Below the pieces are notes generated by a model, which ran no database searches, had not been told where the DNA came from, and worked only from the letters and a program-made list of their open reading frames with translations. Shown one piece after another: positions 5,688 to 21,846 of a stretch of 24,260 nucleotides of DNA (its first letter is position 1; every line of letters begins with the position of its first letter). The DNA is from Candidatus Latescibacterota bacterium (GTDB lineage: Bacteria; Latescibacterota; UBA2968; UBA8231), in contig CBDETK010000010.1 of assembly GCA_965242865.1 (NCBI GenBank), positions 1 to 24,260 on the forward strand, given 5' to 3'. The translations under genes were made by a program, and so were the position numbers.

Positions 5688-6944
5688 TTAAGTTTCAAGA
5701 AGTGATGTCTGAATGGACGCCTCGTGTTCGTCATGTGATTCGTCAGTCGCTGCATCTGCAGATGGACATTGCCCGGCCGCTTTGAGAGGTGTAGAAAGAG
5801 CCCTATCGACAATTTCTACATGTGTAATCTGACTTCGAAGGAAGGCAGCAACCAATCTCACTAGACGACCAGCTTCAGGGTCTGTGAGTGAAAGGCGATT
5901 ATAGGGAATCAAGTTGACTTCCCGTTGCCAGACAATTCGCTCGTATGCAATAAGATCAATTTGCCTGGGGAGCAAGCGTGCATTTTCTCGATTTGCAGCA
6001 AGACGAGAAATAAACTCTATGAATTGTCTAGTCCACACAGGAGGTTCAGGGTGCAAAGCCCCCGTAGCCTCAACGGTCACATTGGCTGGCGCATTTGCCG
6101 CTGCAAGTAGTCCGATGACGTACTTATCTACGTCGTCAGCAATCCGACGCATGACATCCGCTGAAGCCAGGCCAGCACTCAACTGTTCTCCTAATTCTGC
6201 TGCGAGAAGCTCAGGTTCAACTCGAATCGCTTCAAACGCGACCGCTACTGCGTTGAGGGTAAAGACACTTACAGTTTCTGCGAATAACCAACGGAAAGCT
6301 CTAGAATCTTCGTCTTCGATTTCAGCAGTCCAAACTTTACCAAGTTTGCTATATAGGTTGATCAGGCGTTTGCATGCTGTGATCTCGTCATGGAACCAAA
6401 CTTCAGATCTCAAAAACCAAAATGCTCTCTCAAGATCCGGGTTAGATTTACAGTGTTTATGTACCCATTCCCTTTCAAGAAAGGCGCGCGTACCATGGGC
6501 CCCCGCATCCTCGACATCTATCACGCTTGCTAGTTGTTCTCGACGCTCAATATCAGCTTGTGACTGAGCACTAACTCCTATAGATCTCGCCAACTTTCGA
6601 GTACGAGGTGATGGAATAATGCTGCTCACTAACTCAGCATGCTCGGCTCTAACTATCTCTTTAAGACCCCTCAACCATATGATTCTATCGAGAGGCTTCT
6701 GTGCGCTCCTTCCCGTACCAGCTTTCACTTCTCCAATGGTTCGTTTCACTTGAAGAGAAGGCTCGAAATCGTAGGCCATCAGGTCAAGGTCGGTGACAAG
6801 GAGAGGTTCAGGGTGATAGTAACGCTGTAAGTTGATCTTACAACGTGAGAAGTAGCCTTCCCAGAACCAGAGTCTGGCTACGCGCATCTCCATTTCGTCG
6901 CCCTTGTTAAGCGGCTTAGAAGACTGAGTCTTGGCGTGTTGCAC
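5688..6944 (-). CDS. Hypothetical protein with a predicted N-terminal PD-(D/E)xK nuclease domain and helical C-terminus
   Basis: 418-aa ORF; GTG start preceded by GGGAGG. The pattern GDEME...TDLDLMAY...IGEVKAG fits the restriction-endonuclease-like catalytic motif. Overlaps the upstream gene by 29 nt. Confidence 0.7.
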   Translation of the reverse strand: MQHAKTQSSKPLNKGDEMEMRVARLWFWEGYFSRCKINLQRYYHPEPLLVTDLDLMAYDFEPSLQVKRTIGEVKAGTGRSAQKPLDRIIWLRGLKEIVRAEHAELVSSIIPSPRTRKLARSIGVSAQSQADIERREQLASVIDVEDAGAHGTRAFLEREWVHKHCKSNPDLERAFWFLRSEVWFHDEITACKRLINLYSKLGKVWTAEIEDEDSRAFRWLFAETVSVFTLNAVAVAFEAIRVEPELLAAELGEQLSAGLASADVMRRIADDVDKYVIGLLAAANAPANVTVEATGALHPEPPVWTRQFIEFISRLAANRENARLLPRQIDLIAYERIVWQREVNLIPYNRLSLTDPEAGRLVRLVAAFLRSQITHVEIVDRALSTPLKAAGQCPSADAATDESHDEHEASIQTSLLET

Positions 6945-8178
6945 TTTGTAATTCCTCCCTGAGTTTCAGAATAACCGAACGGGCAACTTCATCGGTGGCT
7001 CCCTGATCCGATAATGCAGCTCGATCCTGCTCCGGTGTGACGAACTGACTGGGAGAACGTAGTAACTTCAGAGACTCAACACTACCTGTTCCTTGACCGC
7101 TGGTTCGTTCAAGCCAATCTAGTCCATCACGGACTATCTCAGGTTTTACCATTTTCAGAAATGCACGACCACCATGACTAGGCTCAACTGAGACGATCCC
7201 CTGTGCTTCAAGCAGATGGTAGTCTGTGCCGATGTTGGTAGCAGGACCGACCTGGCCTCGTTCATATAACCGCCTTACTAGCAGGGTTGGATGTGATATC
7301 CTCCCGAGCCCAGATTTTGATTTCTCAGCACCAAACAAAATATGAGCGACGAGTATCTTCCGCTGATGAAGTGCTTCTGTGGTGAGCTTTTTGTCATCGT
7401 CTGTTTCGAGAAGTGGAGAGAAGATATACGTCTGACTGGCACCACCATTAGATGCAGATGACTTGACTGTCGTAGCCTGGATCAAGCCCACTTTTCGTGC
7501 GCTTGCCAAAGCCTGTGGGGATGCTTGCAGCGCTGGTAAGGCAAGTCCCGGCCGATGAGACGCATTCTCACATAACCCTAAAATAACATCTCTTTCAGCC
7601 GAAGGGAGGCTCTTGAGGAATTTAGCAATAGTAATTTGGCCAGTTCCCCAGACATAGGGATTAAAGACAACATTTTCGCTAAGATTCTTCGATAATATTC
7701 GTTTGTTTACCCCAACCGAAAGTGCCAGATTGTAGCCATTTTGGGATATAGTATCAATGAACCCACGTCGTGTTAATTCGTTTAAATGTTGTGACTCAGT
7801 AAGAGGTGCCCAAGACGCTAATTCCACGCTGTGCAGCAAAGCTTGCTCCTCTTGCGTAGGTTCGAGATGCATCAGGACATCGTAAGCCTGCTCTACGAGC
7901 GTGCCAGTAATACCGGCATACTCCTCAATGCCCGTGAGATTATTGTCTGCTACCGTATAATCAATGACGTCAGCTCTTTTAAGCACTGGAAGGATATCAA
8001 TGAGGAGGCTCCTAGGACCAATTCCTGCCGTCTTGGCAAAATTCTCCACAACGTTGGGAGTAAGGTCGGTGGTTGAGAATCCCTTGAGTCGAGCAACAAA
8101 GTCCATAGCACGCCCTGCTAGAAGAAGTGGCTCAATCTCAGCGGCTGTGGTTTGCGGAATCTGACCTGTGTCTGCCAT
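6916..8178 (-). CDS. Hypothetical protein (about 420 aa), first gene of an AT-rich two-gene operon
   Basis: Long ORF (open to 8265) in AT-rich DNA; ATG 8178 chosen as the likely start, which is uncertain. No catalytic motif recognised. Confidence 0.75.
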   Translation of the reverse strand: MADTGQIPQTTAAEIEPLLLAGRAMDFVARLKGFSTTDLTPNVVENFAKTAGIGPRSLLIDILPVLKRADVIDYTVADNNLTGIEEYAGITGTLVEQAYDVLMHLEPTQEEQALLHSVELASWAPLTESQHLNELTRRGFIDTISQNGYNLALSVGVNKRILSKNLSENVVFNPYVWGTGQITIAKFLKSLPSAERDVILGLCENASHRPGLALPALQASPQALASARKVGLIQATTVKSSASNGGASQTYIFSPLLETDDDKKLTTEALHQRKILVAHILFGAEKSKSGLGRISHPTLLVRRLYERGQVGPATNIGTDYHLLEAQGIVSVEPSHGGRAFLKMVKPEIVRDGLDWLERTSGQGTGSVESLKLLRSPSQFVTPEQDRAALSDQGATDEVARSVILKLREELQSATRQDSVF

Positions 8179-8405
8179 ATGCACATACACAATTGCTCGC
8201 CCCAACCGTCGGTGCGAACGAACTTCTGTATTTGTGGATAGAAGCGTCATAGTAGTTACTACCAACCTTTTATAGGTTTTTAAGATATTTGATACCTTTC
8301 ATGCTGTTTCCGCTAAAATGACTCTTAAGTCTTTCAGCAATAAAGCTAGATCCTAGCCTAGCGCCTCTGCACTTCCCTCACTCCAATGCGCGGAACGCAC
8401 TGTAA

Positions 8406-9351
8406 GAGCGTGCGCGGATTGCTCATGGTGTTGGGTTCCAGCGGTTGCGGTGGGCGATGAGTTTGGCGGTGAGGATGCAGGCGATGGCGAGGGCGAGTTG
8501 GGCTCGCCGGTGGCGGGTGCGGCGGTCGGTGTTGCGGCGTAGTTGCCCGAAGTTCGACAGCCAGGAGTTGGTGCGTTCGATGCTCCAGCGCGGCCCGAGA
8601 GGCGCGGGCCGGGGGCCGCTGGCGGCGCCGGGGGCGCGTCTTTTGGGGCAGACGACGTCGGCGATGCCCGCGTCGGCGCACAGCCGCCGGGCGGTTGCGC
8701 TGTCATAGCCGCGGTCTAGGTGCAGGGTCTCGACGCCATCGAGCAGCCCCCGCCGGCCGGCGGCTCTCAGGGTGGGCTCCAACAGGGTCAGGTCATGGCG
8801 GTTGGCGCCGCCGAGCGCGGCCGCGACCGGTATCCCCCAGCGATCGGTCAAAAGCGACCACTTGAACCCGAGCTTGCCCCTGTCAACAGGGCTTTTGCCC
8901 GTTCCCTCGCCGCCGCAGGGAGCCTTGTGAACCGACCCGTCGACGCAGGCCTCGGTCAAATCCAGGCCCACGATGCGGTCATAGGCCTCGATCGACTCGG
9001 CTTCGAGGTCCTCGAACACCCCGGCCTCGATCCACTCGTCGCGGCGGGCCCGCATGGTGGTGTCAGACACCCGGCCCTCCAACAGCCTCTCCGCGGTGAC
9101 CCACGAACAGCCCGTGACCAGCCGGGTGAGCATCCCCCAAAAACAGACCCGGTCCGGGATCCGCGGCCTGTGCCCCCTGCCCGAAGGGCGCCGCGGGACC
9201 CGGGACTTGACCACAGCCCACACCGCATCCACCACCTCGACATCCAACGCGCGCATGATGTAACTGACCTCCACGGTCGTCTCGTCACCGCCCCCCGACA
9301 TACAAACCGGGACAACCAGACGACCCGTGGATGGTCAATCCGCGCACGCTC
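8406..9351 (-). mobile_element. IS5-family insertion sequence (IS1031-like), 946 bp, complete
   Basis: Perfect 16-bp terminal IRs GAGCGTGCGCGGATTG (8406-8421) and CAATCCGCGCACGCTC (9336-9351); TAA target duplication at 8403-8405 and 9352-9354. Confidence 0.92.
8423..9256 (-). CDS. IS5-family DDE transposase
   Basis: CVDGS, SPVDRGKLGFKWSLLTD, LHLDRGYD, RWSIERTNSWLSNF; ATG 9256 with GGAGG upstream. Confidence 0.92.
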   Translation of the reverse strand: MRALDVEVVDAVWAVVKSRVPRRPSGRGHRPRIPDRVCFWGMLTRLVTGCSWVTAERLLEGRVSDTTMRARRDEWIEAGVFEDLEAESIEAYDRIVGLDLTEACVDGSVHKAPCGGEGTGKSPVDRGKLGFKWSLLTDRWGIPVAAALGGANRHDLTLLEPTLRAAGRRGLLDGVETLHLDRGYDSATARRLCADAGIADVVCPKRRAPGAASGPRPAPLGPRWSIERTNSWLSNFGQLRRNTDRRTRHRRAQLALAIACILTAKLIAHRNRWNPTP

Positions 9352-9674: not shown

Positions 9675-10325
9675 ATGGCCAGGGACATCATGCCGCACTC
9701 ATCCATAACTGCTCAAAAGCTTGCACGCAACGTCTGTAATGATATTGGGCTACCTATAAATGTTCGTCGAGAGGCAAGGCGCTTGCTTCGATTAGTAGGG
9801 CAACAACCTGACCGTGTGATAGATCAGCTTAATTTACTCCGAGTACAGGTTACTCCAGAGCTTACTACAGAACTTGCTACGATCCCGTATGCGCGGTGTG
9901 TTTCAATTGAATTATTTTATAAGTATCATCTAAATCCCGGCATATATGATATCTTCAAAATCCCCTCGGATTATCGAGACTTCATTAGTAGCATAAACAA
10001 TCCTGCTGCCCAATTACTTGGTGATCTGAGAGAAGGCACCCTTATACCAGCCGAGCATTCTTGGCTTGTACCATACAGTTATATTCAAAGTTTAATGGCA
10101 ATCCAAATCATGACACAACTTAAATTTAATCAAGCTCCGCCATATGTAGTTATGGTTTTCACGGTGGATAGCCTTCTCAGAGCCGGAATTAAGATTAGAG
10201 AACCGCGAGGAACTGACACTATTCCTAGTGTGCTTACAGAATGGTTTCCAAATAACGTGAAGGGCGAGCGTATTAATTCAGATATACCACGCGCGGCTCT
10301 TGAAGATATTGAGTGGCGGATATGA
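9675..10325 (+). CDS. Hypothetical protein (216 aa)
   Basis: ATG-started ORF in AT-rich DNA; its stop overlaps the next ATG (ATGA, 10322-10325). Confidence 0.75.
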   Translation: MARDIMPHSSITAQKLARNVCNDIGLPINVRREARRLLRLVGQQPDRVIDQLNLLRVQVTPELTTELATIPYARCVSIELFYKYHLNPGIYDIFKIPSDYRDFISSINNPAAQLLGDLREGTLIPAEHSWLVPYSYIQSLMAIQIMTQLKFNQAPPYVVMVFTVDSLLRAGIKIREPRGTDTIPSVLTEWFPNNVKGERINSDIPRAALEDIEWRI

Positions 10326-11773
10326 ACCGGCCATCTATAGGAGCGTATGCATCCGTATTCGAAGCCATACGACGCTATCGTCCTCATCAAGACTCACTTC
10401 ACGATGTTCTTAAGAACTTCGTTGATGGAATTGATGATAAAGAAGCAAGCGTGCTTCCTAAATCAGTGGTTGATATTATGCCACTACTAAAATCGGATAT
10501 TAATCGGTTGCGATTTGCAGCAGATCTTCTCGCAAGATTAGACCTATACGAATCAACTGGAGCATTATTCACTGTGGCGGTACAAACCCGTGATCGTCGA
10601 TTGATGTTGGCAGCCGCTTCTTTAGCTGGCAATCCAGCAGTTGATTCGTCACTACGAGATAGAATAAAGTCGTACGCAGGTGATGATCGAATGGTGATGA
10701 TAAGATTGTCACCAGATGTAGTTCCATCTACTCAGCACGAAAAGATGCTATATTTGCAATGTTGGCCCGGTGAGCGCACGGCGGATATGCCGTTGCAGTT
10801 TGCCCCTGTTGTGGTTTTGGATGTTAGCCTTCCACCAGCTAATTCGCTGAAACTTGCTGCAATGTTAGAAGGCGCTGGAGCGGCCGTTAGAAGATTGGAT
10901 ACTTCTGCTCCCTTGCCATATTGGTTTGGTTACCAGACAGCTTTAGTGTGTAAGCCCAAAAATGCAGATACTGTTCGTTCAAAATATCCTCAGCTTGCTC
11001 CAGATCGGGTTTTCACTGAAGCGTTACCTTCTCAATCGGGTAAGCTAATCCAACGGATGGCAGGGATATATAGCTCCATTCCAAGAGTCAAACAAAGAGA
11101 ATATAAGCGTGTTCTAGATGAGGTCTCAACATACGTGTGGAGCACTGCTAATTATTCTCTTGGCGTCTACGGTACAACTGAGATCCGATATCTGACAGGG
11201 GCCTCGCTGTATCTACTGAAGAAACTGGTTAAAAATGGTTACCTCAAGCCTAAAATATACAAGCAAAGTAGGTACTGTAGATTCGCTGATATTGTGGCAG
11301 TGAGATCCTTCGTTCATTTAAAGAACTTATCTCCAAAGCGTGTACCTGTTGGGATTGTACCGAAACTTGCTGAGTTTCCAGGCAATGATCAGGCAATAAA
11401 TATTGGTGTAACATCTCAAGGAAATGTTTTGTTTGATAAAGGAGAAGGGTGGGTAGATGCTAATACAGGGCAGTCAATTTTTGGACTAGATATTACGAGT
11501 CTGGATAATGTATTCGAACCATTTAAATTAGGTGGTGGACACATGCCTGAATTTGAAGTGCCTGGACTCCTCAATGTTAGTTCAAATACTTGCCTACATC
11601 CTTCAGTCATGAATGGCCTGCCGTACTTACGAAATCATCGGATAAAAGCCACTACACTGGCTGCTATGGAAGAGAGGGGTGGGATTGAGAACATTTATGC
11701 TTCTTATCCAGAACTAAAGGATACTGCATTGGAAGATGCGATCGAAGTCGGCAAGAAACTCATGTACATGTAA
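10322..11773 (+). CDS. Extended antitoxin-like protein: unknown N-terminal region, MerR-like HTH and C-terminal DUF433
   Basis: YGTTEIRYLTGAS...LVKNGYLKP...YCRFADIVAVR (MerR-like HTH); LHPSVMNGLPYLRNHRIK...IYASYPEL...LEDAI (DUF433 pattern). Confidence 0.75.
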   Translation: MNRPSIGAYASVFEAIRRYRPHQDSLHDVLKNFVDGIDDKEASVLPKSVVDIMPLLKSDINRLRFAADLLARLDLYESTGALFTVAVQTRDRRLMLAAASLAGNPAVDSSLRDRIKSYAGDDRMVMIRLSPDVVPSTQHEKMLYLQCWPGERTADMPLQFAPVVVLDVSLPPANSLKLAAMLEGAGAAVRRLDTSAPLPYWFGYQTALVCKPKNADTVRSKYPQLAPDRVFTEALPSQSGKLIQRMAGIYSSIPRVKQREYKRVLDEVSTYVWSTANYSLGVYGTTEIRYLTGASLYLLKKLVKNGYLKPKIYKQSRYCRFADIVAVRSFVHLKNLSPKRVPVGIVPKLAEFPGNDQAINIGVTSQGNVLFDKGEGWVDANTGQSIFGLDITSLDNVFEPFKLGGGHMPEFEVPGLLNVSSNTCLHPSVMNGLPYLRNHRIKATTLAAMEERGGIENIYASYPELKDTALEDAIEVGKKLMYM

Positions 11774-11790
11774 AGGGTTGGTGATGGCTT

Positions 11791-12159
11791 ATGCGAATTC
11801 TGCTAGACACCGAGTTCCCATCCTCAACGGAATATGAGGCTCCTCCTGAGGTTGAACTCATAAGACATAGTGGTCAGCAGATAGAAGACGGAGTTCTAGT
11901 TGACAAGGCATTAGATTATAAGGTACAGGCTATTGCAGTTTTATCTCACAAATCATTGCATCAGACTATTCTGAGAGAAAAATGCCAAGAACACGCTATA
12001 ACACTCATTGTTGTTGACACACCTGATCCGCTGGAAGCTAAGATTAGATTCCTTCATCATATTCATAAAATTCGATCCGAATTATTGGCGAATAGTTCAT
12101 CTATATTACTTGTTCTCAAATCTGAAGTCCGTTCAATCGATAAGGCAAGCTTAGTCTAG
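11791..12159 (+). CDS. PIN-like protein (DUF5615/VapC45-like), putative toxin partner of the DUF433 gene
   Basis: Starts MRILLDTEFP, has IEDGVLV, 122 aa, and lies 17 nt after a DUF433 gene (the established DUF433-PIN arrangement). Confidence 0.7.
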   Translation: MRILLDTEFPSSTEYEAPPEVELIRHSGQQIEDGVLVDKALDYKVQAIAVLSHKSLHQTILREKCQEHAITLIVVDTPDPLEAKIRFLHHIHKIRSELLANSSSILLVLKSEVRSIDKASLV

Positions 12160-12512: not shown

Positions 12513-13607
12513 CTAGTGGTCCGTCGTTGATATAGCTTCTAGGGTGGCTTTGCCTCGTTGGACGTTGGCGATGATGTCGTCGGCGGGTTTGGTCCAGACG
12601 AGGGGTTTGGGGTCCTGGTTCCAGTTGTGGGCCCAGGTGTCGATGGTTTCGGTGAGGTCGGCTAGGGAGCTGAAGCTGTTTTGGGCGAGGGCTTTGCGGG
12701 TGAGGATGGAGAACCAGGCTTCGACGAGGTTGAGCCACGACGCCGAGGTGGGGGTGAAGTGCAGGTGCCAGCGCTTGCGCCTCGGGTGCGCGAGCCAGGT
12801 CCGCACCGGCTCGGATTTGTGGGCTGAGAGGTTGTCGAGCACGATGTGGACGTCGAGTTCTCGGGGGGTGTGCAGGTCGATCCATTTGAAGAAGGCCAAC
12901 ACGTCGCGGCCGGTGTGGCGTTTGCGGGTCTGGTGAAGGACCTCGCCGGTGGCGACGTCGAGCGCGGCGAACAGGTCGGTGGTGCCGTGGCGGCGGTAGT
13001 CGTGGGTCATCGTTTGGGCCCGGCCGGGTTTGATGGGCAGCGAGGGCTGGGTGCGGTCGATGGCCTGGCACTGGGTCTTCTCGTCGAAGCTGAACACGAC
13101 CGCACGCTCCGGGGGGTCCACGTAAAGGCCCACCACGTCGGCCAGTTTGGCCTCGAAGTCGGGGTCGGTGGACAGCTTGAACGTGTCGGTGCGCCACGGG
13201 CGCAGACCCCTCTCGTTCCAGATGCGCTGCACGGTGTCTTTGCCGACCCCGTGGCGGGCGGCCATCGTGCGCGTCGACCACCTCGCGGAGCCGTCGTCGG
13301 GCACGGTGTGCAGCGTGTCATGCACGATCGCCGCCTCCTGCTCGGCGGTGATCTGGCGTTTGCGGCCCCGGCCCGGCGCCACCACCCCCACCCCGGCTGG
13401 ACCCGCTTCGGCGAACCGGGTGCGCCAAAGCCGCACCGTGGCGTCACTGGTGCCGAGCGCCTTGGCCGTCGACCGCACCGAGGCCCCGTCGGCCAAAGCC
13501 AACAAGCCCTTGGCAGCTATCACCCGCCGATAAGGCTCAACCCCGGACCGGGCCAGACGCTCCAGCTCCTCGCGATCCTCAGCCGACATTTCCGTTATGG
13601 CAGTCAT
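12513..13607 (-). CDS. IS630-family transposase
   Basis: WSTRTMA, FKLSTDPDF, VFSFDEK, THDYRRHGT, IVLDNLSAHK, FTPTSASWLNLVEAWF. Confidence 0.95.
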   Translation of the reverse strand: MTAITEMSAEDREELERLARSGVEPYRRVIAAKGLLALADGASVRSTAKALGTSDATVRLWRTRFAEAGPAGVGVVAPGRGRKRQITAEQEAAIVHDTLHTVPDDGSARWSTRTMAARHGVGKDTVQRIWNERGLRPWRTDTFKLSTDPDFEAKLADVVGLYVDPPERAVVFSFDEKTQCQAIDRTQPSLPIKPGRAQTMTHDYRRHGTTDLFAALDVATGEVLHQTRKRHTGRDVLAFFKWIDLHTPRELDVHIVLDNLSAHKSEPVRTWLAHPRRKRWHLHFTPTSASWLNLVEAWFSILTRKALAQNSFSSLADLTETIDTWAHNWNQDPKPLVWTKPADDIIANVQRGKATLEAISTTDH

Positions 13608-13650
13608 GCCGCCATGTTACACTATAGAAGTTATTTCAACGACATACCAC
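12516..13650 (-). mobile_element. IS630-family insertion sequence, 1135 bp, complete
   Basis: Imperfect IRs gtggtccgtcgttgatatagcttcta and tagaagttatttcaacgacataccac (4 mismatches in 26); TA duplication at 12514-12515 and 13651-13652 in a CTAG site. Confidence 0.92.
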
Positions 13651-13685
13651 TAGCGTTGGACGAGAAAGGACAGGAGGTAGCAGAG

Positions 13686-14456
13686 ATGGGTTTAGAAACC
13701 AGTGAAAAATCGGCCGATCGCTCGGACGGTGTCGAGCTGATCGACTTTCAGATGCCGTCGTTGGCAGATGATGACCTGCTCGACGACGAACTCCTCGAGT
13801 ATGCCCTCGGAGAGAGCGACCCCGCCTCTGTTGCCGCCGCCGAGGCCCATCTCGCTGACTGCTTGTTCTGCCGTGTACGCCTCAACCGGATCAAGATTGA
13901 GGATCCGCGTCTTGAGCCGCCGGCCTTCGCCGTGTCGCCCTTGCCGGTTTCAGAGGAGGCCCTCAAGCTCCTCGCTGCCGACCCGCCAGCCTGCGTCGAA
14001 TCCGGCCAGGTCTGGTACGCCCGGGGCGAGCACGAGCAGCTCATGGTGTGGGTCAGCCACGAACCCCCCGGTTTCGATGCGGTCATGGCCCACCCCGTAA
14101 CGCTCAACATCGACGCCGTCGACCACAGCGCTCTGATCGAGGAACTTCCGAAGATCGGGCCCGTGGCAGTTTCTTCCTCCATAGTCGGCCTAGTGCTCAA
14201 GTCCAAACTTGTGGCCCATCTGGGCGATCTGGACATCGCATCAGACCTCTGGCGGCTCTTCAACCGAGCCCGCCCCGACCTTGAAACCGGTCTCCGCACC
14301 GGGCGCCCGATCACCGACCCCAACGACGAGCGGCACGAGTTCGATCAGTTCCTCATCGACCAGATGGCAGACCTATACCCGATCATCGAGCCCCCCGACG
14401 AGGAAAACGACAGCCCCGTCCTCGCCGGAGCCCCAGAGCGTCCAAGGACCAGGTAA
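13686..14456 (+). CDS. Array paralog P1 (256 aa): zf-HC2/ZAS zinc domain plus PemK-like domain
   Basis: AGGAGG RBS before ATG 13686; EAHLADCLFC, GQVWYA, AHPVT, LGDLDI, LRTGRPITDPNDER. The upstream extension in the ORF track lies inside IS630. Confidence 0.85.
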   Translation: MGLETSEKSADRSDGVELIDFQMPSLADDDLLDDELLEYALGESDPASVAAAEAHLADCLFCRVRLNRIKIEDPRLEPPAFAVSPLPVSEEALKLLAADPPACVESGQVWYARGEHEQLMVWVSHEPPGFDAVMAHPVTLNIDAVDHSALIEELPKIGPVAVSSSIVGLVLKSKLVAHLGDLDIASDLWRLFNRARPDLETGLRTGRPITDPNDERHEFDQFLIDQMADLYPIIEPPDEENDSPVLAGAPERPRTR

Positions 14457-14490
14457 GCCTTTAGACGAGAGGGGACAGGAGGTAGCAGAG

Positions 14491-15265
14491 ATGGTTTTGG
14501 AAATCAGTGAAAAGTCGGCCGACCACTCGGACGGTGTCGAGCCGATTGACTTTCGGATGCCGTCGTTGGCAGATGACGACCTGCTCGATGACGAACTCCT
14601 CGAGTACGCCCTCGGGAAGAGCGACCCCGCCTCCGCTGCCGCCGCCGAGGCCCATCTCGCTGACTGCTTGTTCTGCCGTATAGGCCTCAACCGGCTCAAG
14701 ATTCAAGATCCGCGCCTTGAGCCGCCGGCCTTCGCCGTGTCGGCTCCGCCGGTTTCAGAGGAGGCCCTCAAGCTCCTCGCCGCCGACCCCGCCGGCCTGC
14801 GTCGAATCCGACCAGGTCTGGTACGCCCGGAGCGAAGACGCGCAGATCATGGTGTGGGTCAGCCACGAACCGCTCGGTTTTTTTGGTACGGTCATGGCTC
14901 ATCCCGTAACGGTCAACATCGACGCCGTCGACCACAGCGCGCTGATCGTGGATCTGCCGAAGATCGGGCCGGTGGCAGTCTTCTCCGCCATAATCGGCTT
15001 GGTGCCCAAGTCCAAACTCTTGGCCCATCTGGGCGATCTGGACATCGCATCAGACCTCTGGCGGCTCTACAACGGAACCCGGCCCGACCCTGAAACCGGT
15101 CTCCGCACCGGGCGCCGGATCACCGACCCCAACGACGAGCGGATCGAGTTCATCCAGTTCCTCGCCGACCAACTCGCAGACCTATACCCGATCATCGAAC
15201 ACACCGACGAGGAAGACGACAGCCCCATCCTCGCCAGAGCTCCCGGAGACCAGGTGAGCCCTTGA
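14491..15265 (+). pseudogene. Array paralog P2, tandem copy of P1 with a +1 frameshift at C4 14787-14790
   Basis: Same RBS and start context as P1. gacCCCgccggcctgc here vs gacCCgccagcctgc in P1; both halves align with P1. Confidence 0.8.
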
Positions 15266-15320
15266 TCGCCAACAGGTGCCAGATCGCCGTCCCGGAGCCA
15301 GGCCAGATCAGCGCCCAAGA

Positions 15321-15375
15321 CGGCGACCAATCCCGGAGCCCAGTAAGACCCTGATCGTAGGCAGGCACCGGATCG
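15321..15375 (+). repeat. Orphan copy of the P4 3' end and downstream sequence (18858-18912)
   Basis: cggcgaccaatcccggagcccagtaagaccctgatcgtaggcaggcaccggatcg aligns without gaps; 9 mismatches in 55. Confidence 0.8.
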
Positions 15376-15393
15376 ACCGGACGGTTGCGCACG

Positions 15394-15422
15394 TTGCGTC
15401 GCGCCAGTAAACCTAGTAACAT
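15394..15422 (+). promoter_or_regulatory. Putative promoter of MazF-like gene 1
   Basis: TTGCGT-17 nt-TAACAT, overlapped by the imperfect dyad AACATCA-N7-TGAAGTT. Confidence 0.45.
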
Positions 15423-15537
15423 CAAATTCACTGAAGTTGCTTCCCCCCGGCTGTTGCGTCTGTTGGTCGTCACGGACGTCGCGCCCGCGTTCGCTTCTTG
15501 AACGTATGAGCGAGAAACGGCGGCCAGTGACCGAGGG

Positions 15538-15882
15538 GTGCCGACCTTGGCGCGAAAGCCGTACCTGCCGAACCCAGGCGATGTCTACTGGGTGGAAGCT
15601 GTGGTTTTCTACGACTATGACCCGAAACCGCGTCGGCCTGTCCTCGTCATCGGTGTCCTTCGACCGACATCTGAAGGCATAGTCGTCGTCACCCGCACCA
15701 CCGATCTCGCCCCAAATGGCGTGTACTCCGCCGCCGACCCAAGCCTTGGTTTGAACAAGCCCGGGGTGTGGGTCTACAAAAAATACGCCAGGTCGTCTCT
15801 GTGGATGTTCCCGCTGGTCAAACGGCGTGGTGCTGTCAGTGTTGCCGAGTTGGAGACGGTCAAAGCGAGGTTCAGTCTATGA
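15538..15882 (+). CDS. MazF/PemK-like protein 1 (putative endoribonuclease toxin)
   Basis: PGDVYWV...RRPVLVI...VVVTRTT...GLNKPG, 114 aa. The start may be TTG 15547. Confidence 0.75.
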   Translation: MPTLARKPYLPNPGDVYWVEAVVFYDYDPKPRRPVLVIGVLRPTSEGIVVVTRTTDLAPNGVYSAADPSLGLNKPGVWVYKKYARSSLWMFPLVKRRGAVSVAELETVKARFSL

Positions 15883-15956
15883 CCTTGCCCAAAAAGAAGA
15901 GGATATAATGAAAATTCTCAGGTCAGAGCCGGAAGAGTGGGGAAACGGGAGGTGTC

Positions 15957-17420
15957 GTGATGGTTCAGGGAGTCTGTGAGGAGTTGCAAAGTGGGCCGGA
16001 CGAGGTCGAGCAGTTGGAGGTCCAGCCGTATGTGATGCGCAAGGGGCCCTACCACCCGTCCGATGCCGACCTCCTCGAGAACGCCCTCGGAGAACACGAC
16101 ACCGCCAGCGGGTTGGATATCGAAGGCCATCTGACTGATTGCCTGTACTGCCGTGTACGCCTCGACCGGATCAAGATCATCGACTCTCGCCTCGAACCGC
16201 CCGCTTACGCCGTGCCGTCTCGGCCGGTTTCGGACGAAACGCTCGAACTACTGGCGGCCAACCCACTGCCCAAGGTCGAAGCGGGCCAGGTCTGGCTCGC
16301 CCAAGGCGATCGCGGACAGCTCATGGTGTGGATCGGGCGGCTTCGCTCCGACGCCGGCGCGGCCTTGGTTCGTCCGGTCACCCCCAACATCGACGCCGTC
16401 GACGACAGCGCGCTGATCGTGGAACTGCCCAACGTCGGCCCGGTGGGGGTCTTCTCCTCTCTGGTCGGCTCGGTTGACGTCTCCAGGCTTGTAGCCCACT
16501 TGGGCGACTTGGACATCGCGTCAGACCTCCAGCGGATCGCCGACGCGCCGCCAACCGACGCCCGCACGGGTCTCAAGACCGGCCGCCCCATCACCGGCCC
16601 CGGCGACGAGCGGCACGAGTTCTATGAGTCCCTCATGTATCAGCTCGACAACCTTGACCCGATAATCGAGTCCGCCGACGAGGACGACGACATGTTGGCC
16701 GACGGTTGGGAGCCCGGCCTAGTGTACACGATCCCCGGGCCCTGCCACCTCCGCCATCCGTCCGAGCCCGATCTGCTGGGGTGCGCCCTAGACGAACTCG
16801 ACGGCCCCGCCGGGGCAGATGTGCAGGCTCATTTGGCTGACTGTCTGTTCTGCCGGATACGCGTCAACCGGATGAGGCGTTGTGACCCGCGCCTTGAAAC
16901 GCCCCGCTATGCGCCGACCCGGCCGCATATCCCAGAGGAGATCCTGGGGCCCTTGGCCGCCGACTCGCCTGCCGATGTCAAACCCGGCCAGGTCTGGCTG
17001 GCCGGCCCGCCCGGGTGCGAACAGGTAATGGTGTGGGTCAGGGGCGTCTTCCCTCATGCGATCATGGTTCACGCGGTCACGTCCGACATCGACTTCGTCG
17101 AGGAGTTCTCCCTGATCGCGGACCTGCCGGCCATCGGCCGCCCGGTGGCGGTCGTCTCCTCGGTCTCCAACGCCGTGCCCAGAGAAACCCTTGTAGCCAA
17201 TCTCGGCGACTTCGACATCAAGTCCGACATCCGGGAAGCCCGTGAGGCGGCGTTGAGCCGAAATGCGACCGCTCTGCGCACCGGTCGCCCGATCACCGAC
17301 CCCGCCGATGTGCGGAACGAGTTCCTGCACATGCTGGCCGACGACCTCGCCGCCCTCGACCAGCAAAGCGACGCCTCTCGGGTTGAGGCTCGTGTGGGAC
17401 GGAAACAGGGGGTGTCGTGA
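15957..17420 (+). CDS. Array paralog P3 (487 aa) with two tandem ZAS plus PemK-like modules
   Basis: GGGAGG RBS; HPSDADLL...HLTDCLYC and HPSEPDLL...HLADCLFC; GQVWLA and TGRPIT each occur twice; TATAAT at 15904-15909. Confidence 0.88.
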   Translation: MMVQGVCEELQSGPDEVEQLEVQPYVMRKGPYHPSDADLLENALGEHDTASGLDIEGHLTDCLYCRVRLDRIKIIDSRLEPPAYAVPSRPVSDETLELLAANPLPKVEAGQVWLAQGDRGQLMVWIGRLRSDAGAALVRPVTPNIDAVDDSALIVELPNVGPVGVFSSLVGSVDVSRLVAHLGDLDIASDLQRIADAPPTDARTGLKTGRPITGPGDERHEFYESLMYQLDNLDPIIESADEDDDMLADGWEPGLVYTIPGPCHLRHPSEPDLLGCALDELDGPAGADVQAHLADCLFCRIRVNRMRRCDPRLETPRYAPTRPHIPEEILGPLAADSPADVKPGQVWLAGPPGCEQVMVWVRGVFPHAIMVHAVTSDIDFVEEFSLIADLPAIGRPVAVVSSVSNAVPRETLVANLGDFDIKSDIREAREAALSRNATALRTGRPITDPADVRNEFLHMLADDLAALDQQSDASRVEARVGRKQGVS

Positions 17421-18883
17421 TGGTTCAGGGAACCTGTGAGAAGTTGCAAAACGGGCCGGACGAGATTGAGGAGTTGGAGGTCCAGCCGTACGTGATGCGC
17501 AAGGGTCCCTACCACCCGTCCGATGCCGACCTCCTCGAGAAGGCCCTCGGAGAACACGACACCGCCAGCGGGTCGGATATCGAAGGCCATCTCTCTAATT
17601 GCCTGTACTGCCGCATACGCCTCAACCGGATCAAGATCAGCGACCCTCGCCTCGAACCGCCCGCCTTCGCCGTGCCGTCTCGGCCGGTTTCGGACGAGAC
17701 ACTCGAATTCCTGGCCGCCAACCGATCGCCTATGGTCGAAGCGGGCCAAGTCTGGCTCGCCCAAGGCGATCACGGACAGCTCATGGTGTGGATCGGGGGG
17801 CTTCGCTCCGACACCGACGCGGCCTGGGCTTATCCGGTCACCCCCAACATCGACGCCGTAGACGACAACGCGCTGATCGTGGAACTGCCCAACGTCGGCC
17901 CGGTGGGGGTCGTCTCTTCTCTGTACGGCTCGGTTGACGTCTCCAGGCTTGTAGCCCACTTGGGCGACTTGGACATCGATTCCGACCTCCGGCGGCTCGA
18001 CGAAGCGGCGCGGAACGGGACTCGGACCGATTTGCGCACCGGCCGCCCGATCACCGATTCCGCCGACGAGCGGCATGAGTTCGATCAGTTTCTCATCGAC
18101 CAGCTCGCCGACCTTGACCCGATCATCGAGTCCGCCGACGAGGACGACGACATGTTGGCCGACGGATGGGAGCCCGGCTTGGTGTTCGCGATCCCCGGGC
18201 CCTGCCACCCCTGCCATCCGTCCGAGCCCGACCTGCTCGGATACGCCCTAGACGAACTCGACGGCCCCGCCGGGGCAGACGTGCAGGCCCATCTGGCGGA
18301 TTGTCTGTTCTGCCGGATACGCGTCAACCGGATAAGGCGCTGTGACCCACGCCTCGAACCGCCCCGCCATGCGCCAACCCGGCCGCATATCCCAGAGGAG
18401 ATCCTGGGGCCCTTGGCTGCCGACTCGCCTGCCGATGTCAATCCCGGCCAGGTCTGGCTGGCTGGCCGGCCCGGGTGCGAACAGGTCATGGTGTGGGTCA
18501 GGGGTGTCTTCCCTCATGCGATCATGGTTCACGCGGTCACGTCTGACATCGACTTCGTCGAGGAGCTCTCCCTGATCGCGGACCTGCCGGTCATCGGCCG
18601 CCCGGTGGCGGTCGTTTCCTCGGTCTCCAACGCCGTGCCCAGGGAAACCCTCGTGGCCCACTTGGGCGACCTCGACATCAAGTCCGACATCCGGGAAGCC
18701 CGTGAGGCGGCGCTGAGCCGAAATGCGACCGCTCTGCGCACCGGCCGCCCGATCACCGATCCCGCCGACGTGCGCAACGAGTTCCTGCACATGCTGGCCG
18801 ACGACCTCGCCGCCCTCGACCAGCAAGCCGACACCCCCGCCCTCGCCGGAGCTACCGCGGTGGCCAACCCCGGAACCAAGTAA
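17417..18883 (+). CDS. Array paralog P4 (488 aa), two modules, tandem duplicate of P3
   Basis: Offset from P3 is 1460 nt at both the start and the end of the aligned region; GTGA overlap with the P3 stop; HLSNCLYC and HLADCLFC. Confidence 0.88.
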   Translation: MMVQGTCEKLQNGPDEIEELEVQPYVMRKGPYHPSDADLLEKALGEHDTASGSDIEGHLSNCLYCRIRLNRIKISDPRLEPPAFAVPSRPVSDETLEFLAANRSPMVEAGQVWLAQGDHGQLMVWIGGLRSDTDAAWAYPVTPNIDAVDDNALIVELPNVGPVGVVSSLYGSVDVSRLVAHLGDLDIDSDLRRLDEAARNGTRTDLRTGRPITDSADERHEFDQFLIDQLADLDPIIESADEDDDMLADGWEPGLVFAIPGPCHPCHPSEPDLLGYALDELDGPAGADVQAHLADCLFCRIRVNRIRRCDPRLEPPRHAPTRPHIPEEILGPLAADSPADVNPGQVWLAGRPGCEQVMVWVRGVFPHAIMVHAVTSDIDFVEELSLIADLPVIGRPVAVVSSVSNAVPRETLVAHLGDLDIKSDIREAREAALSRNATALRTGRPITDPADVRNEFLHMLADDLAALDQQADTPALAGATAVANPGTK

Positions 18884-18942
18884 GGCCCTGATCGCAGGCA
18901 GGCATCGGACCGCCGCCCCGGGCTGAAGCCTGTTTTTCGGGG

Positions 18943-18971
18943 TTGCGCGCCAGAGGCTTGTAGTGTATAGT
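18943..18971 (+). promoter_or_regulatory. Putative promoter giving a leaderless or near-leaderless DUF3467 transcript
   Basis: TTGCGC-17 nt-TATAGT; ATG 18980 lies 8 nt after the -10 with no RBS. Confidence 0.6.
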
Positions 18972-18979
18972 TAGTGCTT

Positions 18980-19303
18980 ATGAGTGATTTTCAAGGTCAA
19001 GACTTCCCTCATGACGGTCAGAATCTGGAGATCCGGATGCCGCCCGAACTCGAGGCTGGCGTCTGGTCGAACTTCGCGATTGTCAGCCACTCGCCGTTCG
19101 AGTTCACCTTGGATTTCGTTCGACTCGACTTCACTAGCAACCCGCCCGGGGGTGTGGTAGTACAGCGGGTCAACATGTCACCGCAATTTGTCGAACAACT
19201 CATCAACGCGTTGAACCAGAACATGGAGAATTACGCGGCCAGGCTCGCTGCTGACATCAACCCACCCGATTCTGTTTCTGATGGAGAAGATCCGAATGGA
19301 TGA
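18980..19303 (+). CDS. DUF3467 family protein
   Basis: GVWSNFAIVSHSPFEFTLDF...VVQRVNMSPQ...LINALNQNMENY matches the family pattern. Confidence 0.85.
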   Translation: MSDFQGQDFPHDGQNLEIRMPPELEAGVWSNFAIVSHSPFEFTLDFVRLDFTSNPPGGVVVQRVNMSPQFVEQLINALNQNMENYAARLAADINPPDSVSDGEDPNG

Positions 19304-19487
19304 TGACATCAGGTACTTTTTGTCTGACGGGCAGAGCGCAGAATTTCCCATAAAGACCGGGCCCTGGATGAATGTCACCATTCGCGGATACGGCAACCAG
19401 GAGCAATCGTACAGGATGAGGCTTAGGCTGGACCCCGGCCGTGATATTAACTTTATTGCCAAACCTCCTCCGGGCATGGAAATATAG
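19296..19487 (+). CDS. Small hypothetical protein (63 aa) coupled to DUF3467
   Basis: ATG 19296 with GGAG upstream; overlaps the DUF3467 end by 8 nt. Confidence 0.55.
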   Translation: MDDDIRYFLSDGQSAEFPIKTGPWMNVTIRGYGNQEQSYRMRLRLDPGRDINFIAKPPPGMEI

Positions 19488-19553
19488 TCGATTATCCACT
19501 TCCTCACCCGCGCCGAGGAAGAACGAGAAGGCGGGCCCCGTAGCTGGCCGGTA

Positions 19554-19640
19554 CCGGTCAGATCGGGGGGCCAGGGTTGGCGGCGGCCGCTGTCGCCTAG
19601 GGGAACCGGCCAGCGGCGATCAGCGCCGGTCCGGTCCGGC
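19554..19640 (-). pseudogene. Decayed duplicate of the 3' end of the SCO1664-family gene
   Basis: Aligns with 21081-21168. Translates with frameshifts as ALIAAGRFP.GDSGRRQPWPP.I* vs ALVAADRFPIDEQGRRWPWPLV*. Confidence 0.75.
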
Positions 19641-19691
19641 TTGCAATGACCTGGGATCTGGTGTATACTGGCAAACATCAAAAATTGATGT
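19641..19691 (+). promoter_or_regulatory. Putative promoter and operator of MazF-like gene 2
   Basis: TTGCAA-17 nt-TATACT (19641-19669), followed by the perfect dyad ACATCAA-AAA-TTGATGT (19675-19691) over the expected start site. Confidence 0.65.
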
Positions 19692-19822
19692 AAAACCCTT
19701 CCCCGATCTTCCCCCAACGACCGGTCGGCGGTCGATCTGCCTAGCCGCCTCAATCTTGAGCGCAGCCGTTGGCGGACGAACACGACACGGTCGGCAGGCC
19801 TTCTCAAAAATGCGAGCAGCCG

Positions 19823-20179
19823 ATGATCGGGGCAATCCGTCTGACCGAGAAACCGTATCTGCCTAATCCAGGCGATGTCTACTGGGTAGATACTGAGGTC
19901 TTTTATGATATCGACCCTAAACGTCATCGACCTGTGCTCGTAGTCAGTGTTAGCCGATCAACAGTTGACCACATAATTGTTGTGACCCGTACCACAGATT
20001 TAAGTGTGGATGTGGGGGTATTTTCGGCTGTAGATTTGACTTGTGGACTGAACAAACCTGGAGTGTGGTGTCGTATAAGATACGCAAAGCCCCACCGGTG
20101 GGCCCGTCCATTAGTTGAATGGCGTGGTGTGGTTAATATGACTGAATTGATGGCGGTTAGGACGGAGTTCGATCTGTGA
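19823..20179 (+). CDS. MazF/PemK-like protein 2 (putative endoribonuclease toxin)
   Basis: KPYLPNPGDVYWV...RHRPVLVV...VVTRTTDL...GLNKPGVW; about 64 of 109 residues identical to copy 1 by manual alignment. Confidence 0.75.
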   Translation: MIGAIRLTEKPYLPNPGDVYWVDTEVFYDIDPKRHRPVLVVSVSRSTVDHIIVVTRTTDLSVDVGVFSAVDLTCGLNKPGVWCRIRYAKPHRWARPLVEWRGVVNMTELMAVRTEFDL

Positions 20180-20273
20180 TTTCAGTTCAAAAACCTCCAG
20201 AGTTTGAGCCGGGTTGGTTGAATGCGGCTGTAGTCGCATATAATAAGTGATCAGGAACGAGGAGGCAGCAGGC

Positions 20274-21044
20274 ATGGTTCTGGAAACCCACAGGAAGCGG
20301 CAAGATCGCCGGGACGGGATGGGGCCGTCCGATGTGCGGCCACTCCCAATGGAAGGGCACCCATTTGACCTCGATCTCCTCGGGTGCGCCCTCGGAGAGC
20401 TCGACGGTCCCGTTGCGACGGACGTTGATGCCCACCTGGCAGGCTGCTTCTACTGCCACATGCGCCTCAATCGAATCCGGCGCCGCGACCCGCGCCTTGA
20501 TCCGCCTCGCAACGCACCGCCGCGCCCGCGCATCCCCGAGGAGATCCTCTCGCCTCTCGCCGCCAACCCTCCCGGCGACGTCAAAGTCGGCCAGGTATGG
20601 CTAGCCGGCGAACGAGAAAACGAACAGATTATGGTGTGGATCAGGAGCGTTCGCCCCCGCACGATCACGGCTCATCCCGTCACTCTCGACGTCGACTACG
20701 TCGACGACCTCTCACTGATCGTGGAACTGCCGGTCGTCGAGTGTCAGGTATCAGTTGTGTCCTCTCTAATCGGCACCGTGCCCAGAAAAATTCTCGTAGC
20801 CCACCTTGGCGACCTCGACATCGAATACGACCTCCGACGGATTAACGAAGCCGCGCGGAATGGAACTCCGACCGATCTGCGCACCGGCCGCCCCGTCGCC
20901 AACCCCAACGACGAGCGTGACGAGTTTCGGCAGATGCTGGCTGACGATCTAGCGGCCATTGACCCGATTATCGATACCCCCGACGACGAGGACCACCCCG
21001 TTCTTGCTGGAGCCCCCGGGGCTACCGGACCAGGGACCGGGTGA
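20274..21044 (+). CDS. Array paralog P5 (256 aa), single ZAS plus PemK-like module
   Basis: GAGGAGG RBS; HPFDLDLL...HLAGCFYC, GQVWLA, AHPVT, LRTGRPV..PNDER; TATAAT at 20239-20244. Confidence 0.88.
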   Translation: MVLETHRKRQDRRDGMGPSDVRPLPMEGHPFDLDLLGCALGELDGPVATDVDAHLAGCFYCHMRLNRIRRRDPRLDPPRNAPPRPRIPEEILSPLAANPPGDVKVGQVWLAGERENEQIMVWIRSVRPRTITAHPVTLDVDYVDDLSLIVELPVVECQVSVVSSLIGTVPRKILVAHLGDLDIEYDLRRINEAARNGTPTDLRTGRPVANPNDERDEFRQMLADDLAAIDPIIDTPDDEDHPVLAGAPGATGPGTG

Positions 21045-21084
21045 TCCCTGATCGGAGGCCGTCCCTGCAGCTTGTCAGGGCCGG

Positions 21085-21846
21085 TCAGACCAGGGGCCAG
21101 GGCCAGCGGCGGCCTTGTTCGTCGATGGGGAATCGGTCGGCGGCGACTAGGGCCCGGGTGCGGGCCAGGGCGGCCTCCCGCTCGATCGGGGTGAGGATCT
21201 CGGCCAGCGGCTCGGGCAGGCCGGCCTCCAGCAGGGCCCGCAGGTCGGCGCCGATCGAGGCGGGCAGGTCTTCGCCGGCGAAGTCCCACAGCACGGTCCG
21301 AAGCTTGAACTCGTGGTGGAACGACAGGTTGTTGTCGATGGCCCAGATCGAGCCGTCGGCCCCCAGCAGGCAGTGGCCCGACTTGCGGTCGGTGTTGTTT
21401 ATGACCACGTCCAGGGCGCACATCCGCTCCAGCTCCAGGCGGTAGCCGGGGCGGTCCCGCAGGGTGAAGTAGTGCTCCTCGGGGTCGAACGGCATGAACA
21501 ACTGGAGCGAACCCAGACCGAACGGGGCCTCGGAGCGCATGACGGTGGGGGGGACCAGATCCCAGCCCAGGGCCTGATCGACGGCGAAGGCGGCCGCCTC
21601 CCGGTAGGCGATCCCCGGCGGGAAGTCCCACAGCGGCCGCTCACCCCGGAGCGGCTTGTATATGGCCTGGGCGACCAGCTCCCCCCCCTCGGCCAAATCG
21701 ACCAGGAAGGTGGCGTTGGAGCTGTAGGGCATCCGGCCCACGATCTCCAGCTCCCCCTCGGCCAGCAGCTCCAGGGCTCGGGGGGTTTCGATGGGAGGAC
21801 GGTCCAGAAACGGCGAGTCTTCCGTCGGCGACACCTGCATCGGCAC
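21085..21846 (-). CDS. SCO1664-family protein (PI3/4-kinase-like)
   Basis: SSNATFL, IYKPLRGERPLWDFP, REAAA, VINNTDRKSGH, AIDNNLSFH, KLRTVLWDFAGE. Confidence 0.92.
   Translation of the reverse strand: MPMQVSPTEDSPFLDRPPIETPRALELLAEGELEIVGRMPYSSNATFLVDLAEGGELVAQAIYKPLRGERPLWDFPPGIAYREAAAFAVDQALGWDLVPPTVMRSEAPFGLGSLQLFMPFDPEEHYFTLRDRPGYRLELERMCALDVVINNTDRKSGHCLLGADGSIWAIDNNLSFHHEFKLRTVLWDFAGEDLPASIGADLRALLEAGLPEPLAEILTPIEREAALARTRALVAADRFPIDEQGRRWPWPLV

Follow-up and report, generated by a model that had tools for sequence, protein, structure and literature searches.

An array of zinc anti-sigma/MazF-fold modules interleaved with small MazF-like genes, and its candidate four-gene parent cassette

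What kind of system is made of repeated zinc-motif genes interleaved with small toxin-like genes, with neither a sigma factor nor an antitoxin in sight? We address this question for contig CBDETK010000010.1 of assembly GCA_965242865.1, assigned to a Candidatus Latescibacterota bacterium, whose positions 1 to 24,260 we refer to as the window (24,260 nt). An initial annotation, made from the letters of the window, had described in the region 13686-21044 an array of zinc anti-sigma/PemK-like fusion genes alternating with MazF-like toxins, and had put it forward as a candidate new system. Our analysis indicates that the repeated module joins a zinc anti-sigma (ZAS)-type domain to a domain predicted to have the MazF/CcdB fold, and that the array is best read as a reduced and amplified form of a cassette, T-B-C-D, that is found elsewhere with four genes. 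No library that we searched names the T or module proteins of the window, in line with the proposed novelty.

Composition of the array and of its module

The open reading frame (ORF) listing and an alignment of the translations bear out the five co-oriented paralogs with seven modules of ~240 aa that had been described: the modules are spread over genes P1 to P5, all on the + strand, with P2 frameshifted. Each module consists of three parts, i.e., a ZAS-type anti-sigma domain, a MazF/CcdB-fold domain and an acidic tail. P1 (13686..14456, +) and P2 (14491..15265, +) hold one module each; that of P2 is split over two frames by a 1-nt insertion, an extra C at 14787 relative to P1, with which it shares 93% DNA identity. 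P3 (15957..17420, +) holds two modules (a, 15957-16691; b, 16692-17417), as does P4 (17417..18883, +), a tandem duplicate of P3 with a unit of 1460 nt whose start overlaps the P3 stop. P5 (20247..21044, +) holds a single module, its probable start being the ATG at 20274 behind AGGAGG. Two small genes, T1 (15538..15882, +; probable start TTG 15547, giving MARKPYL as in P0015) and T2 (19823..20179, +), lie directly upstream of P3 and P5, as had also been noted, with gaps of 75 nt between T1 and P3 and of 68-95 nt between T2 and P5.

The seven modules share 41-90% protein identity, and the six uninterrupted ones have 67 invariant columns in common, including H63, C67, C70, GQVW, VT, GD.DI, TGRP and D.R.EF. 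Module proteins found no match in Pfam or PADLOC; in NCBIfam, anti-sigma models matched the N-terminal part weakly (E 3e-4 to 0.03) and fell far short of their cut-offs. An AlphaFold2 model of P5, built from a 90-row alignment of the family, reached a predicted local distance difference test score (pLDDT) of 85.1 and a predicted template modelling score (pTM) of 0.73, with disordered ends (pLDDT 52-60 across the last ~25 residues, i.e., the acidic tail). Searched with Foldseek against PDB, the model gave 53 matches at E <= 1e-3, and all 29 of the matches listed are toxins of the MazF/CcdB superfamily (TM by target 0.59-0.72). The best 11 rows in VIA-align are MazF, CcdB or Kid (Z 10.1-7.1, residues ~110-208). 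In a second structural comparison, 136 of 999 chains had a Z of at least 8, and each of the 50 rows listed is MazF or CcdB; the best structural match was 5hk0_B (Z 10.5, 96 aligned residues, root-mean-square deviation (rmsd) 2.9). In the model, then, module residues ~110-208 have the MazF/CcdB fold.

The N-terminal part resembles ZAS anti-sigma factors in structure and in profile. More specifically, VIA-align matched RslA to module residues 37-85 (Z 4.8, 48 aligned, rmsd 2.5, 25% identity) and RsiW with Z 4.1, and the 90-row family profile compared to PDB retrieved ChrR (E 4.5e-5), RslA (1.2e-4) and DdvA (1.4e-4), anti-sigma factors accounting for five of the six matches. ZAS domains bind zinc through an H-x3-C-x2-C pattern preceded by a histidine or cysteine about 24 residues upstream, and the module motif, H-x24-H-x3-C-x2-C, fits this pattern. 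The ligands H63, C67 and C70 are present in 90/90 family rows, while the upstream histidine is found in 82/84 rows from outside the window and in 5/6 window modules, P1 having D in the aligned column (context MPSLADDD). W118, G214 and D222 are likewise invariant in the family, and D148, D153, R224 and E226 nearly so.

Foldseek, VIA-align and the family profile thus agree with the earlier description of the module as a fusion of a zinc anti-sigma domain to a PemK-like one. As regards the second half, the fold holds up and the conserved catalytic pair does not. We take the catalytic arginine (before strand 2) and threonine/serine of E. coli MazF to be R29 and T52. At the position matched by eye to the arginine, all six window modules have Q, and the other rows of the family have mainly A (40/84) or R (23/84); at the threonine position the rows from outside the window divide into T (39/84) and V (35/84). 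We read the MazF-fold domain of the module as non-catalytic and, lacking the conserved catalytic pair, as something other than a second toxin.

T1 and T2 are 58% identical (BLASTP E 4e-45), and several comparisons lend modest support to the view that they are divergent MazF/PemK relatives, as had been suggested. All eight PDB profile matches of T are MazF or PemK, colinear over residues 8-112 (E 0.09-0.9); 25 of 30 Atlas feature matches fall in PemK sets (score 0.93); and hhalign aligned nine T sequences with five MazF genes of the bin, i.e., the genome to which the contig was assigned, over 97 columns (E 3.5e-5, probability 72%). At E <= 1, the Pfam family PemK_toxin (PF02452) matches three of five T family members. 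All 11 sequences of the T family have R32-P33 and R52, and at least 90% of them have T51; these residues align with the RRP and P-I-T-type motifs of MazF.

The absence of the partners expected from known systems also stands. None of the 13 Sigma70_r2 matches of the bin is on this contig, no small upstream antitoxin gene is evident in the window ORF list, and a domain scan of 17 window ORFs detected no Lon, SAVED or sigma domain. The contig thus shows no extracytoplasmic function (ECF) sigma factor and no small antitoxin, as the initial annotation had stated.

The T-B-C-D cassette and the array as its probable reduced form

Few proteins are closely related to the module, 14 in a search space of 5.8 billion. 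A module profile search retrieved 207 representative clusters; among the best 150 of these, 130 carry HxxxCxxC and 95 are 400-520 aa long. The longer relatives (hereafter C, ~450 aa) consist of the module, an acidic linker and a further domain of ~220 aa. To place C and T in their gene neighbourhoods, we considered eight metagenome loci found via C, from a scan using a 15-row alignment (a 72-row one was too diverse), and three genome loci found via T, whose search gave loci in 3/401 genomes of one class. T lies upstream in 6/6 C-found loci with upstream sequence, a further gene, B, is present in the same six, and a fourth, D, lies downstream in 8/8. The T-found loci have B and C downstream in 3/3 and D in 2/3. 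The gene order T, B, C and usually D is therefore seen in all nine judgeable loci outside the window, and the genes are tightly packed with overlapping ends. The pairing of a MazF-like gene with a ZAS fusion gene, which the initial annotation had expected to be conserved, does recur in each of these loci; its basic two-gene unit of toxin and zinc partner does not survive the comparison, the usual form being a four-gene operon, T-B-C-(D). One T homolog, at L035 1752-2209, matches in two overlapping frames (E 1.2e-6 and 3.6e-6) and may be frameshifted.

No family matches B (322 aa). Similarity to sigma region 4 is seen at its C-terminus (FliA E 0.008; hhalign E 2.3e-4; six of eight PDB matches are sigma factors), and its N-terminal half gave no match to sigma region 2. 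We refrain from naming B a sigma factor, given the missing region-2 match and Atlas structure rows to sigma factors at TM 0.19-0.26, under the bar. Given the sigma region-4-like helix-turn-helix (HTH) of B, the ancestral form nonetheless probably includes the sigma partner that the window lacks. The initial annotation had opposed homologs beside sigma factors to homologs beside MazF-like genes; the loci have both, a MazF-like gene and a sigma region-4-like HTH protein.

D is a Rad50/SMC-like ATPase of ~590 aa with a zinc hook (Pfam SMC_N E 9e-18). In PADLOC it matches mad3 (E 1.6e-21) and, over its whole length, LmuB (E 1e-17); it stays below every NCBIfam cut-off. No PADLOC model reaches E <= 0.01 with T, B or C, and none of the three proteins is named by Pfam, NCBIfam or PADLOC. 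A natural C-D fusion (P0122) suggests that C works with the ATPase. In locus L011 (genome G016), a protein matching the C-terminal domain of C alone (profile positions 238-439, E 9e-15) has a D-like ATPase (E 3e-31) after it, an arrangement where C's C-terminal domain, and not the module, may be the part working with the ATPase. Other relatives place the same parts in further contexts, with the module ahead of NNH7-NACHT-cNMP domains in P0086 and an Xre-type HTH ahead of the MazF-fold part in P0135.

The cassette has recurrent neighbours. A multiubiquitin/DUF6791-ThiF (E1-like)/DUF6527 cassette lies directly downstream of T-B-C-D in L038 (9219-11114) and likewise in L039 and L040, and a tyrosine integrase lies upstream in L035 and L038, which suggests that T-B-C-D travels in islands with other conflict-type genes. 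From the conserved gene order, we read T-B-C-D as an undescribed four-gene cassette and as the ancestral form of the unit in the window. One conserved operon brings together three familiar elements, namely the toxin fold of MazF, the zinc-type anti-sigma domain and an ATPase resembling Rad50/SMC, and this parent cassette is a more interesting object than the array itself.

In the window, and in the whole bin, neither B nor D was found, and the module and T occur in the bin at this window only. The window modules end in the acidic linker of C. The array is best read as a C-terminally truncated, tandemly amplified derivative of C, in which two copies of T and seven of the first half of C appear to remain. 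Copies of the module arose within genes and between genes by unequal recombination. P1/P2 and P3/P4 are two recent duplication units, with a direct-repeat family (D2) of seven copies and a unit spacing of 805-809 nt for P1/P2 and 1460 nt for P3/P4. In contigs of public sequencing runs aligned to the window, some joints leave out 907, 1224 or 3196 nt and others go back by 810 or 1434 nt, suggesting that the array gains and loses copies by unequal recombination. Deletion chimeras are encoded on related contigs (P0004, P0006 and P0014); in P0006, a P4a-like module runs straight into a DUF3467 C-terminus as a deletion fusion.

Such turnover raises the question of whether the array is mostly non-functional debris, i.e., a T-B-C-D cassette broken by insertion sequence (IS) activity and unequal crossing-over, with copies of C and T drifting to loss. 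Besides the chimeras, the joints and the P2 frameshift, this explanation would account for the missing B, D and C-terminal domain of C, and for an IS630-type transposase (12513..13607, -; Pfam DDE_3 E 1e-21 plus HTH_29/HTH_32) that forms the left boundary of the array and directly abuts P1, in place of an upstream T gene. The ratio of nonsynonymous to synonymous substitution rates (dN/dS) also reaches 0.61-0.68 in some pairs of modules. The full range between modules is nevertheless 0.26-0.68, below 1 in 11/11 comparisons, and the ratio between T1 and T2 is 0.09; we conclude that selection is purifying, and fairly relaxed on the modules. Every residue that is invariant in the 90-row alignment of the family is retained in the six intact modules, and good ribosome-binding sites precede P1, P3 and P5. 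The P2 allele without the extra base at 14787 is present in contigs of 4/4 public runs aligned to the window (depth shares per run 436/694, 10.6/18.5, 386/811 and 21.9/21.9), and an intact P2-like protein (P0008) is encoded on another contig. Finally, the module-only form recurs intact in several assemblies (P0001, P0002, P0008, P0019 and P0020) and in a different metagenome-assembled genome (MAG), at locus L009. On these grounds, we regard the debris explanation as quite unlikely.

The public runs also bear on where such genes reside. Runs X1 and X3 contain contigs at least 92% alike to the module genes (window 13600-18870) at depths of hundreds, and run X1 contains a contig identical to 18797-21100 at a depth of 4.3. 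A much more abundant genome in these samples (X1, X3) seems to carry genes closely related to the module genes. Runs X2 and X6, which were also compared to the window, carry the label sponge metagenome.

The host of the array itself is probably not the organism of the bin. The array lies in an island with a GC fraction of 0.42-0.67 and two IS transposases inside, flanked by DNA of ~0.70-0.76; the first and last 2-kb windows of the contig have 0.75 and 0.74. On the 5.6-Mb chromosome of the bin (contig C13), 0/2806 2-kb windows reach 0.72, the maximum being 0.703. The contig is probably mis-binned and from a higher-GC organism. Contig C3 of the bin has a similar high-GC end, and the right flank of the window encodes an SCO1664-family protein (TIGR03843, E 2.7e-70). 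Among 75 other genomes of the bin's taxonomic family, none has the module, and this says little given the probable mis-binning. In a sample of the phylum, matches were ZAS-only or C-terminal-only, a result that we discount on the same grounds, and a search for relatives in the species genomes gave a single locus.

A module-only gene outside the window points to a different role for these proteins. L009 is a lone P1-like module in an Acidimicrobiia MAG (G168), with no T within 8 kb; it sits at the edge of a low-GC island, beside a weak excisionase-type HTH, and G168 also carries a full T-B-C-D cassette (L050) 3.1 Mb away. The true host of the island, or other hosts that receive it, might encode a full cassette or a different sigma-like partner at a distance, and module proteins, acting in trans as anti-sigma-like decoys or modulators, might attach to its B or T. 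They would damp that system, as anti-defence or immunity on a mobile island, or tune a sigma-dependent response, with T1 and T2 as passengers or spare effectors. The lower GC and the two IS transposases of the window island agree with such a role, as do P1 and P2, which lack an adjacent T. In addition, the contig spans just 24 kb and was probably mis-binned, the ZAS-type domain is a bona fide sigma-binding fold, and CalpT, as far as it is described in the part of its report considered below, offers a precedent for an anti-sigma factor with a MazF-like domain. On the other hand, no B-type gene or Sigma70_r2 match is on the contig or linked to it, the two T genes are kept under strong purifying selection right beside module genes, and transfer of the island finds no support in the window, where searches for an integrase or a tRNA were empty. 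We consider a role in trans unlikely.

A proposed mechanism and its nearest precedents

The observations on which a mechanism can be built are the domain make-up of the module, the conserved gene order, the amplification, the purifying selection, and the loss of the MazF catalytic pair in the module and not in T. From these we infer that T is toxic, that it is bound by the module, and what would trigger its release. In our proposal, to which we give moderate confidence, T would be an RNase toxin, and the product of the downstream module gene the pseudo-toxin/anti-sigma-like partner that restrains it. T would act as an active endoribonuclease toxin, the module protein encoded just downstream would keep it inactive, and the two would form a toxin/antitoxin-like unit of reversed order. 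Inhibition could be achieved in two ways: either the pseudo-MazF domain takes the position of a second T subunit in a pair with T, or the acidic tail of the module is laid in the substrate groove of T, as MazE does. Disturbance or degradation of the zinc-bound anti-sigma-type domain would then free T, a step that in the full cassette would be under the control of B and of D, the DNA-sensing ATPase. Heterodimerisation of T and the module is a structural idea only; a predicted complex of P5 (residues 30-265) and T2 scored 0.55, 0.31 and 0.61, vs 0.43 for one unrelated control, and speaks neither way on binding. The T-module pairs are small, and they pose the question of whether a pseudo-toxin can serve as an antitoxin and what role the zinc site plays.

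Several points weigh against the proposal that the module holds T. First, the identity of T as a MazF-type toxin is not secured by Pfam, where PF02452 gives 17.4 bits for T2 (E 0.0051) and 12.1 bits for T1 (E 0.23), short of the cut-off of 23.1, and an AlphaFold2 model of T1 on five sequences had a mean pLDDT of 37.9, too low for a fold search. Second, profile-profile comparison of the MazF-fold part of the module with MazF and with T was not significant (E 0.19, 0.21 and 0.38), so that the assignment of this fold is a structural one, and the by-eye residue match to the catalytic pair comes from a non-significant alignment. Third, P1 and P2 have no T gene upstream and, together with the L009 module, suggest that the module can persist without a neighbouring T. 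Fourth, in the ancestral operon it is B, not C, that directly follows T, and the true partner of T could be B. Lastly, the P2 frameshift and the deletion chimeras on related contigs suggest that some decay is ongoing.

The zinc site invites another explanation, close to what the initial annotation had in mind, in which the modules are redox sensors of zinc/thiol type, like RsrA, and the paralogs sense different stresses or phages, each releasing a MazF toxin for abortive infection. The conserved H-x3-C-x2-C motif with its upstream histidine and the ZAS class of the domain are what such a sensor would need, the paralogs have diverged (41-90% identity), and a type IIG restriction/DrmMI-like methylase is encoded in the same island. 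Set against this, two T genes face seven modules, and the ancestral cassette points to a DNA-sensing ATPase, not redox, as the input. Moreover, most ZAS anti-sigma factors (the ChrR, RslA and RsiW types) use zinc structurally and few are redox switches. We hold an array of redox sensors to be highly unlikely, and zinc or redox sensing by the module is speculation.

A broader proposal extends the T-module mechanism to the parent cassette. T-B-C-D may be a new Rad50/SMC-based immune system, in which DNA sensing by the ATPase would be relayed via C as an anti-sigma/pseudo-MazF adaptor, freeing B, T or both. The module-only genes of the window would then be a bank of diversified adaptor copies, perhaps the first case of toxin-antitoxin pairs whose antitoxin consists of a dead toxin-fold copy joined to a zinc anti-sigma domain, or else island-borne decoys that disarm the full system. 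This proposal is tentative and, taken as a whole, probably goes too far.

The nearest precedent we found, by analogy of domains, is CalpT, an anti-sigma factor containing a MazF-like domain that is paired with CalpS, an ECF-like sigma factor, and cleaved by the CRISPR protease CalpL (bioRxiv 10.1101/2024.05.08.593097). The description of CalpT includes DUF2080, and by the authors' account PDB contains no more of it than the 10-kDa fragment (bioRxiv 10.1101/2024.05.08.593097). As far as the available part of that report goes, C resembles CalpT in joining an anti-sigma-type domain to an apparently non-catalytic MazF fold and, in the full cassette, in following a sigma region-4-like HTH protein. 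The cascades differ in that CalpT acts with a SAVED-Lon protease and type III CRISPR, whereas neither is present here and the sensor candidate is a Rad50/SMC-like ATPase; the cassette moreover has an extra free-standing MazF-like gene, T, and the window lacks a sigma-like partner. That part of the report mentions no HxxxCxxC zinc motif for CalpT, so the likeness is one of domain logic only. CalpT is absent among the matches listed in the module structural and profile comparisons, and no sequence match to it was obtained. Our literature search found no paper on zf-HC2 plus PemK, nor, among the papers listed, any on a combination of anti-sigma, MazF and SMC; for a fused anti-sigma and MazF-like protein it found the CalpT paper alone. 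As the sole precedent found, CalpT suggests that bacterial immunity makes repeated use, as a relay, of an anti-sigma domain paired with a dead MazF.

MazEF, ZAS anti-sigma factors, Lamassu and HicA-SMC proteins each share one aspect only with the array or the cassette. As in MazEF/PemIK (Kid/Kis), the gene pair is tightly spaced, and one member, T, is a small MazF/PemK-like protein in which the Arg-Pro and Thr motifs are retained. MazE has an acidic C-terminus, and the neighbour of T similarly ends in an acidic disordered tail. In contrast to MazEF/PemIK, the toxin gene comes first and the partner second, T is below the Pfam PemK cut-off, and the partner, 240-490 aa long, includes a MazF fold of its own and lacks a DNA-binding domain of the AbrB/RHH kind. 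With the ZAS anti-sigma factors (RsrA, ChrR, RslA, RsiW and DdvA) the module shares the ligand pattern, fold and profile similarity; unlike them, it has no ECF sigma gene beside it in the window, its C-terminal partner is a MazF fold and not a membrane anchor or cupin, and the whole unit is tandemly duplicated within one polypeptide (P3, P4).

Lamassu (LmuA-LmuB-LmuC), in the excerpt of the literature used here, couples a conserved SMC-family protein to diverse effectors. D of the full cassette matches LmuB and has the Rad50 zinc hook, whereas T, B and C match neither LmuA nor LmuC and the window has no SMC-like gene. RNase-toxin-type folds built into larger defence-type proteins have been described, including a HicA-SMC fusion of class 14 (PMC10865869, considered in part). 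HicA-SMC and cis-antitoxin proteins such as EzeT and CapRel, where a toxin domain is fused to or guarded by an SMC domain or its own inhibitor, resemble the present family in having a toxin-type fold inside larger proteins, here the C-D (P0122) and module-NACHT (P0086) fusions. The fold differs (HicA vs MazF), the MazF fold here seems non-catalytic, and the toxin candidate is a separate gene. We file the array as a variant of toxin-antitoxin-like and anti-sigma relay modules.

Other features of the window

The spacers between the T genes and their downstream module genes each contain a perfect TATAAT hexamer, read directly from the sequence, at 15904..15909 (+) between T1 and P3 and at 20239..20244 (+) between T2 and P5. 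Each is a possible promoter of its own for P3 and for P5. A promoter/terminator scan of the window stayed at the level of shuffled sequence (2 found vs 1.5 expected, and 3 vs 5.0), and the hexamer in the T1-P3 spacer was not flagged by the two-hexamer promoter scan. Between P4 and T2 lies a DUF3467 gene (18974..19303, +; Pfam PF11950 E 2.6e-14).

At the left edge of the lower-GC island, a 1046-aa Eco57I/N6_Mtase protein is encoded at 2475-5615 (+), for which DrmMI (E 1e-55) and a type IIG restriction-methylase (E 5e-43) are the best matches in PADLOC; partner genes of a DISARM system were not recognised. The part of the island with the lowest GC (0.42-0.49) holds five ORFs, at 5688-8265 (-) and 9675-12159 (+), that have no family match; a 486-aa ORF of this part has a below-cut-off DUF433 match at its end. 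An IS5-type transposase (8423-9301) lies between the two groups of low-GC ORFs.

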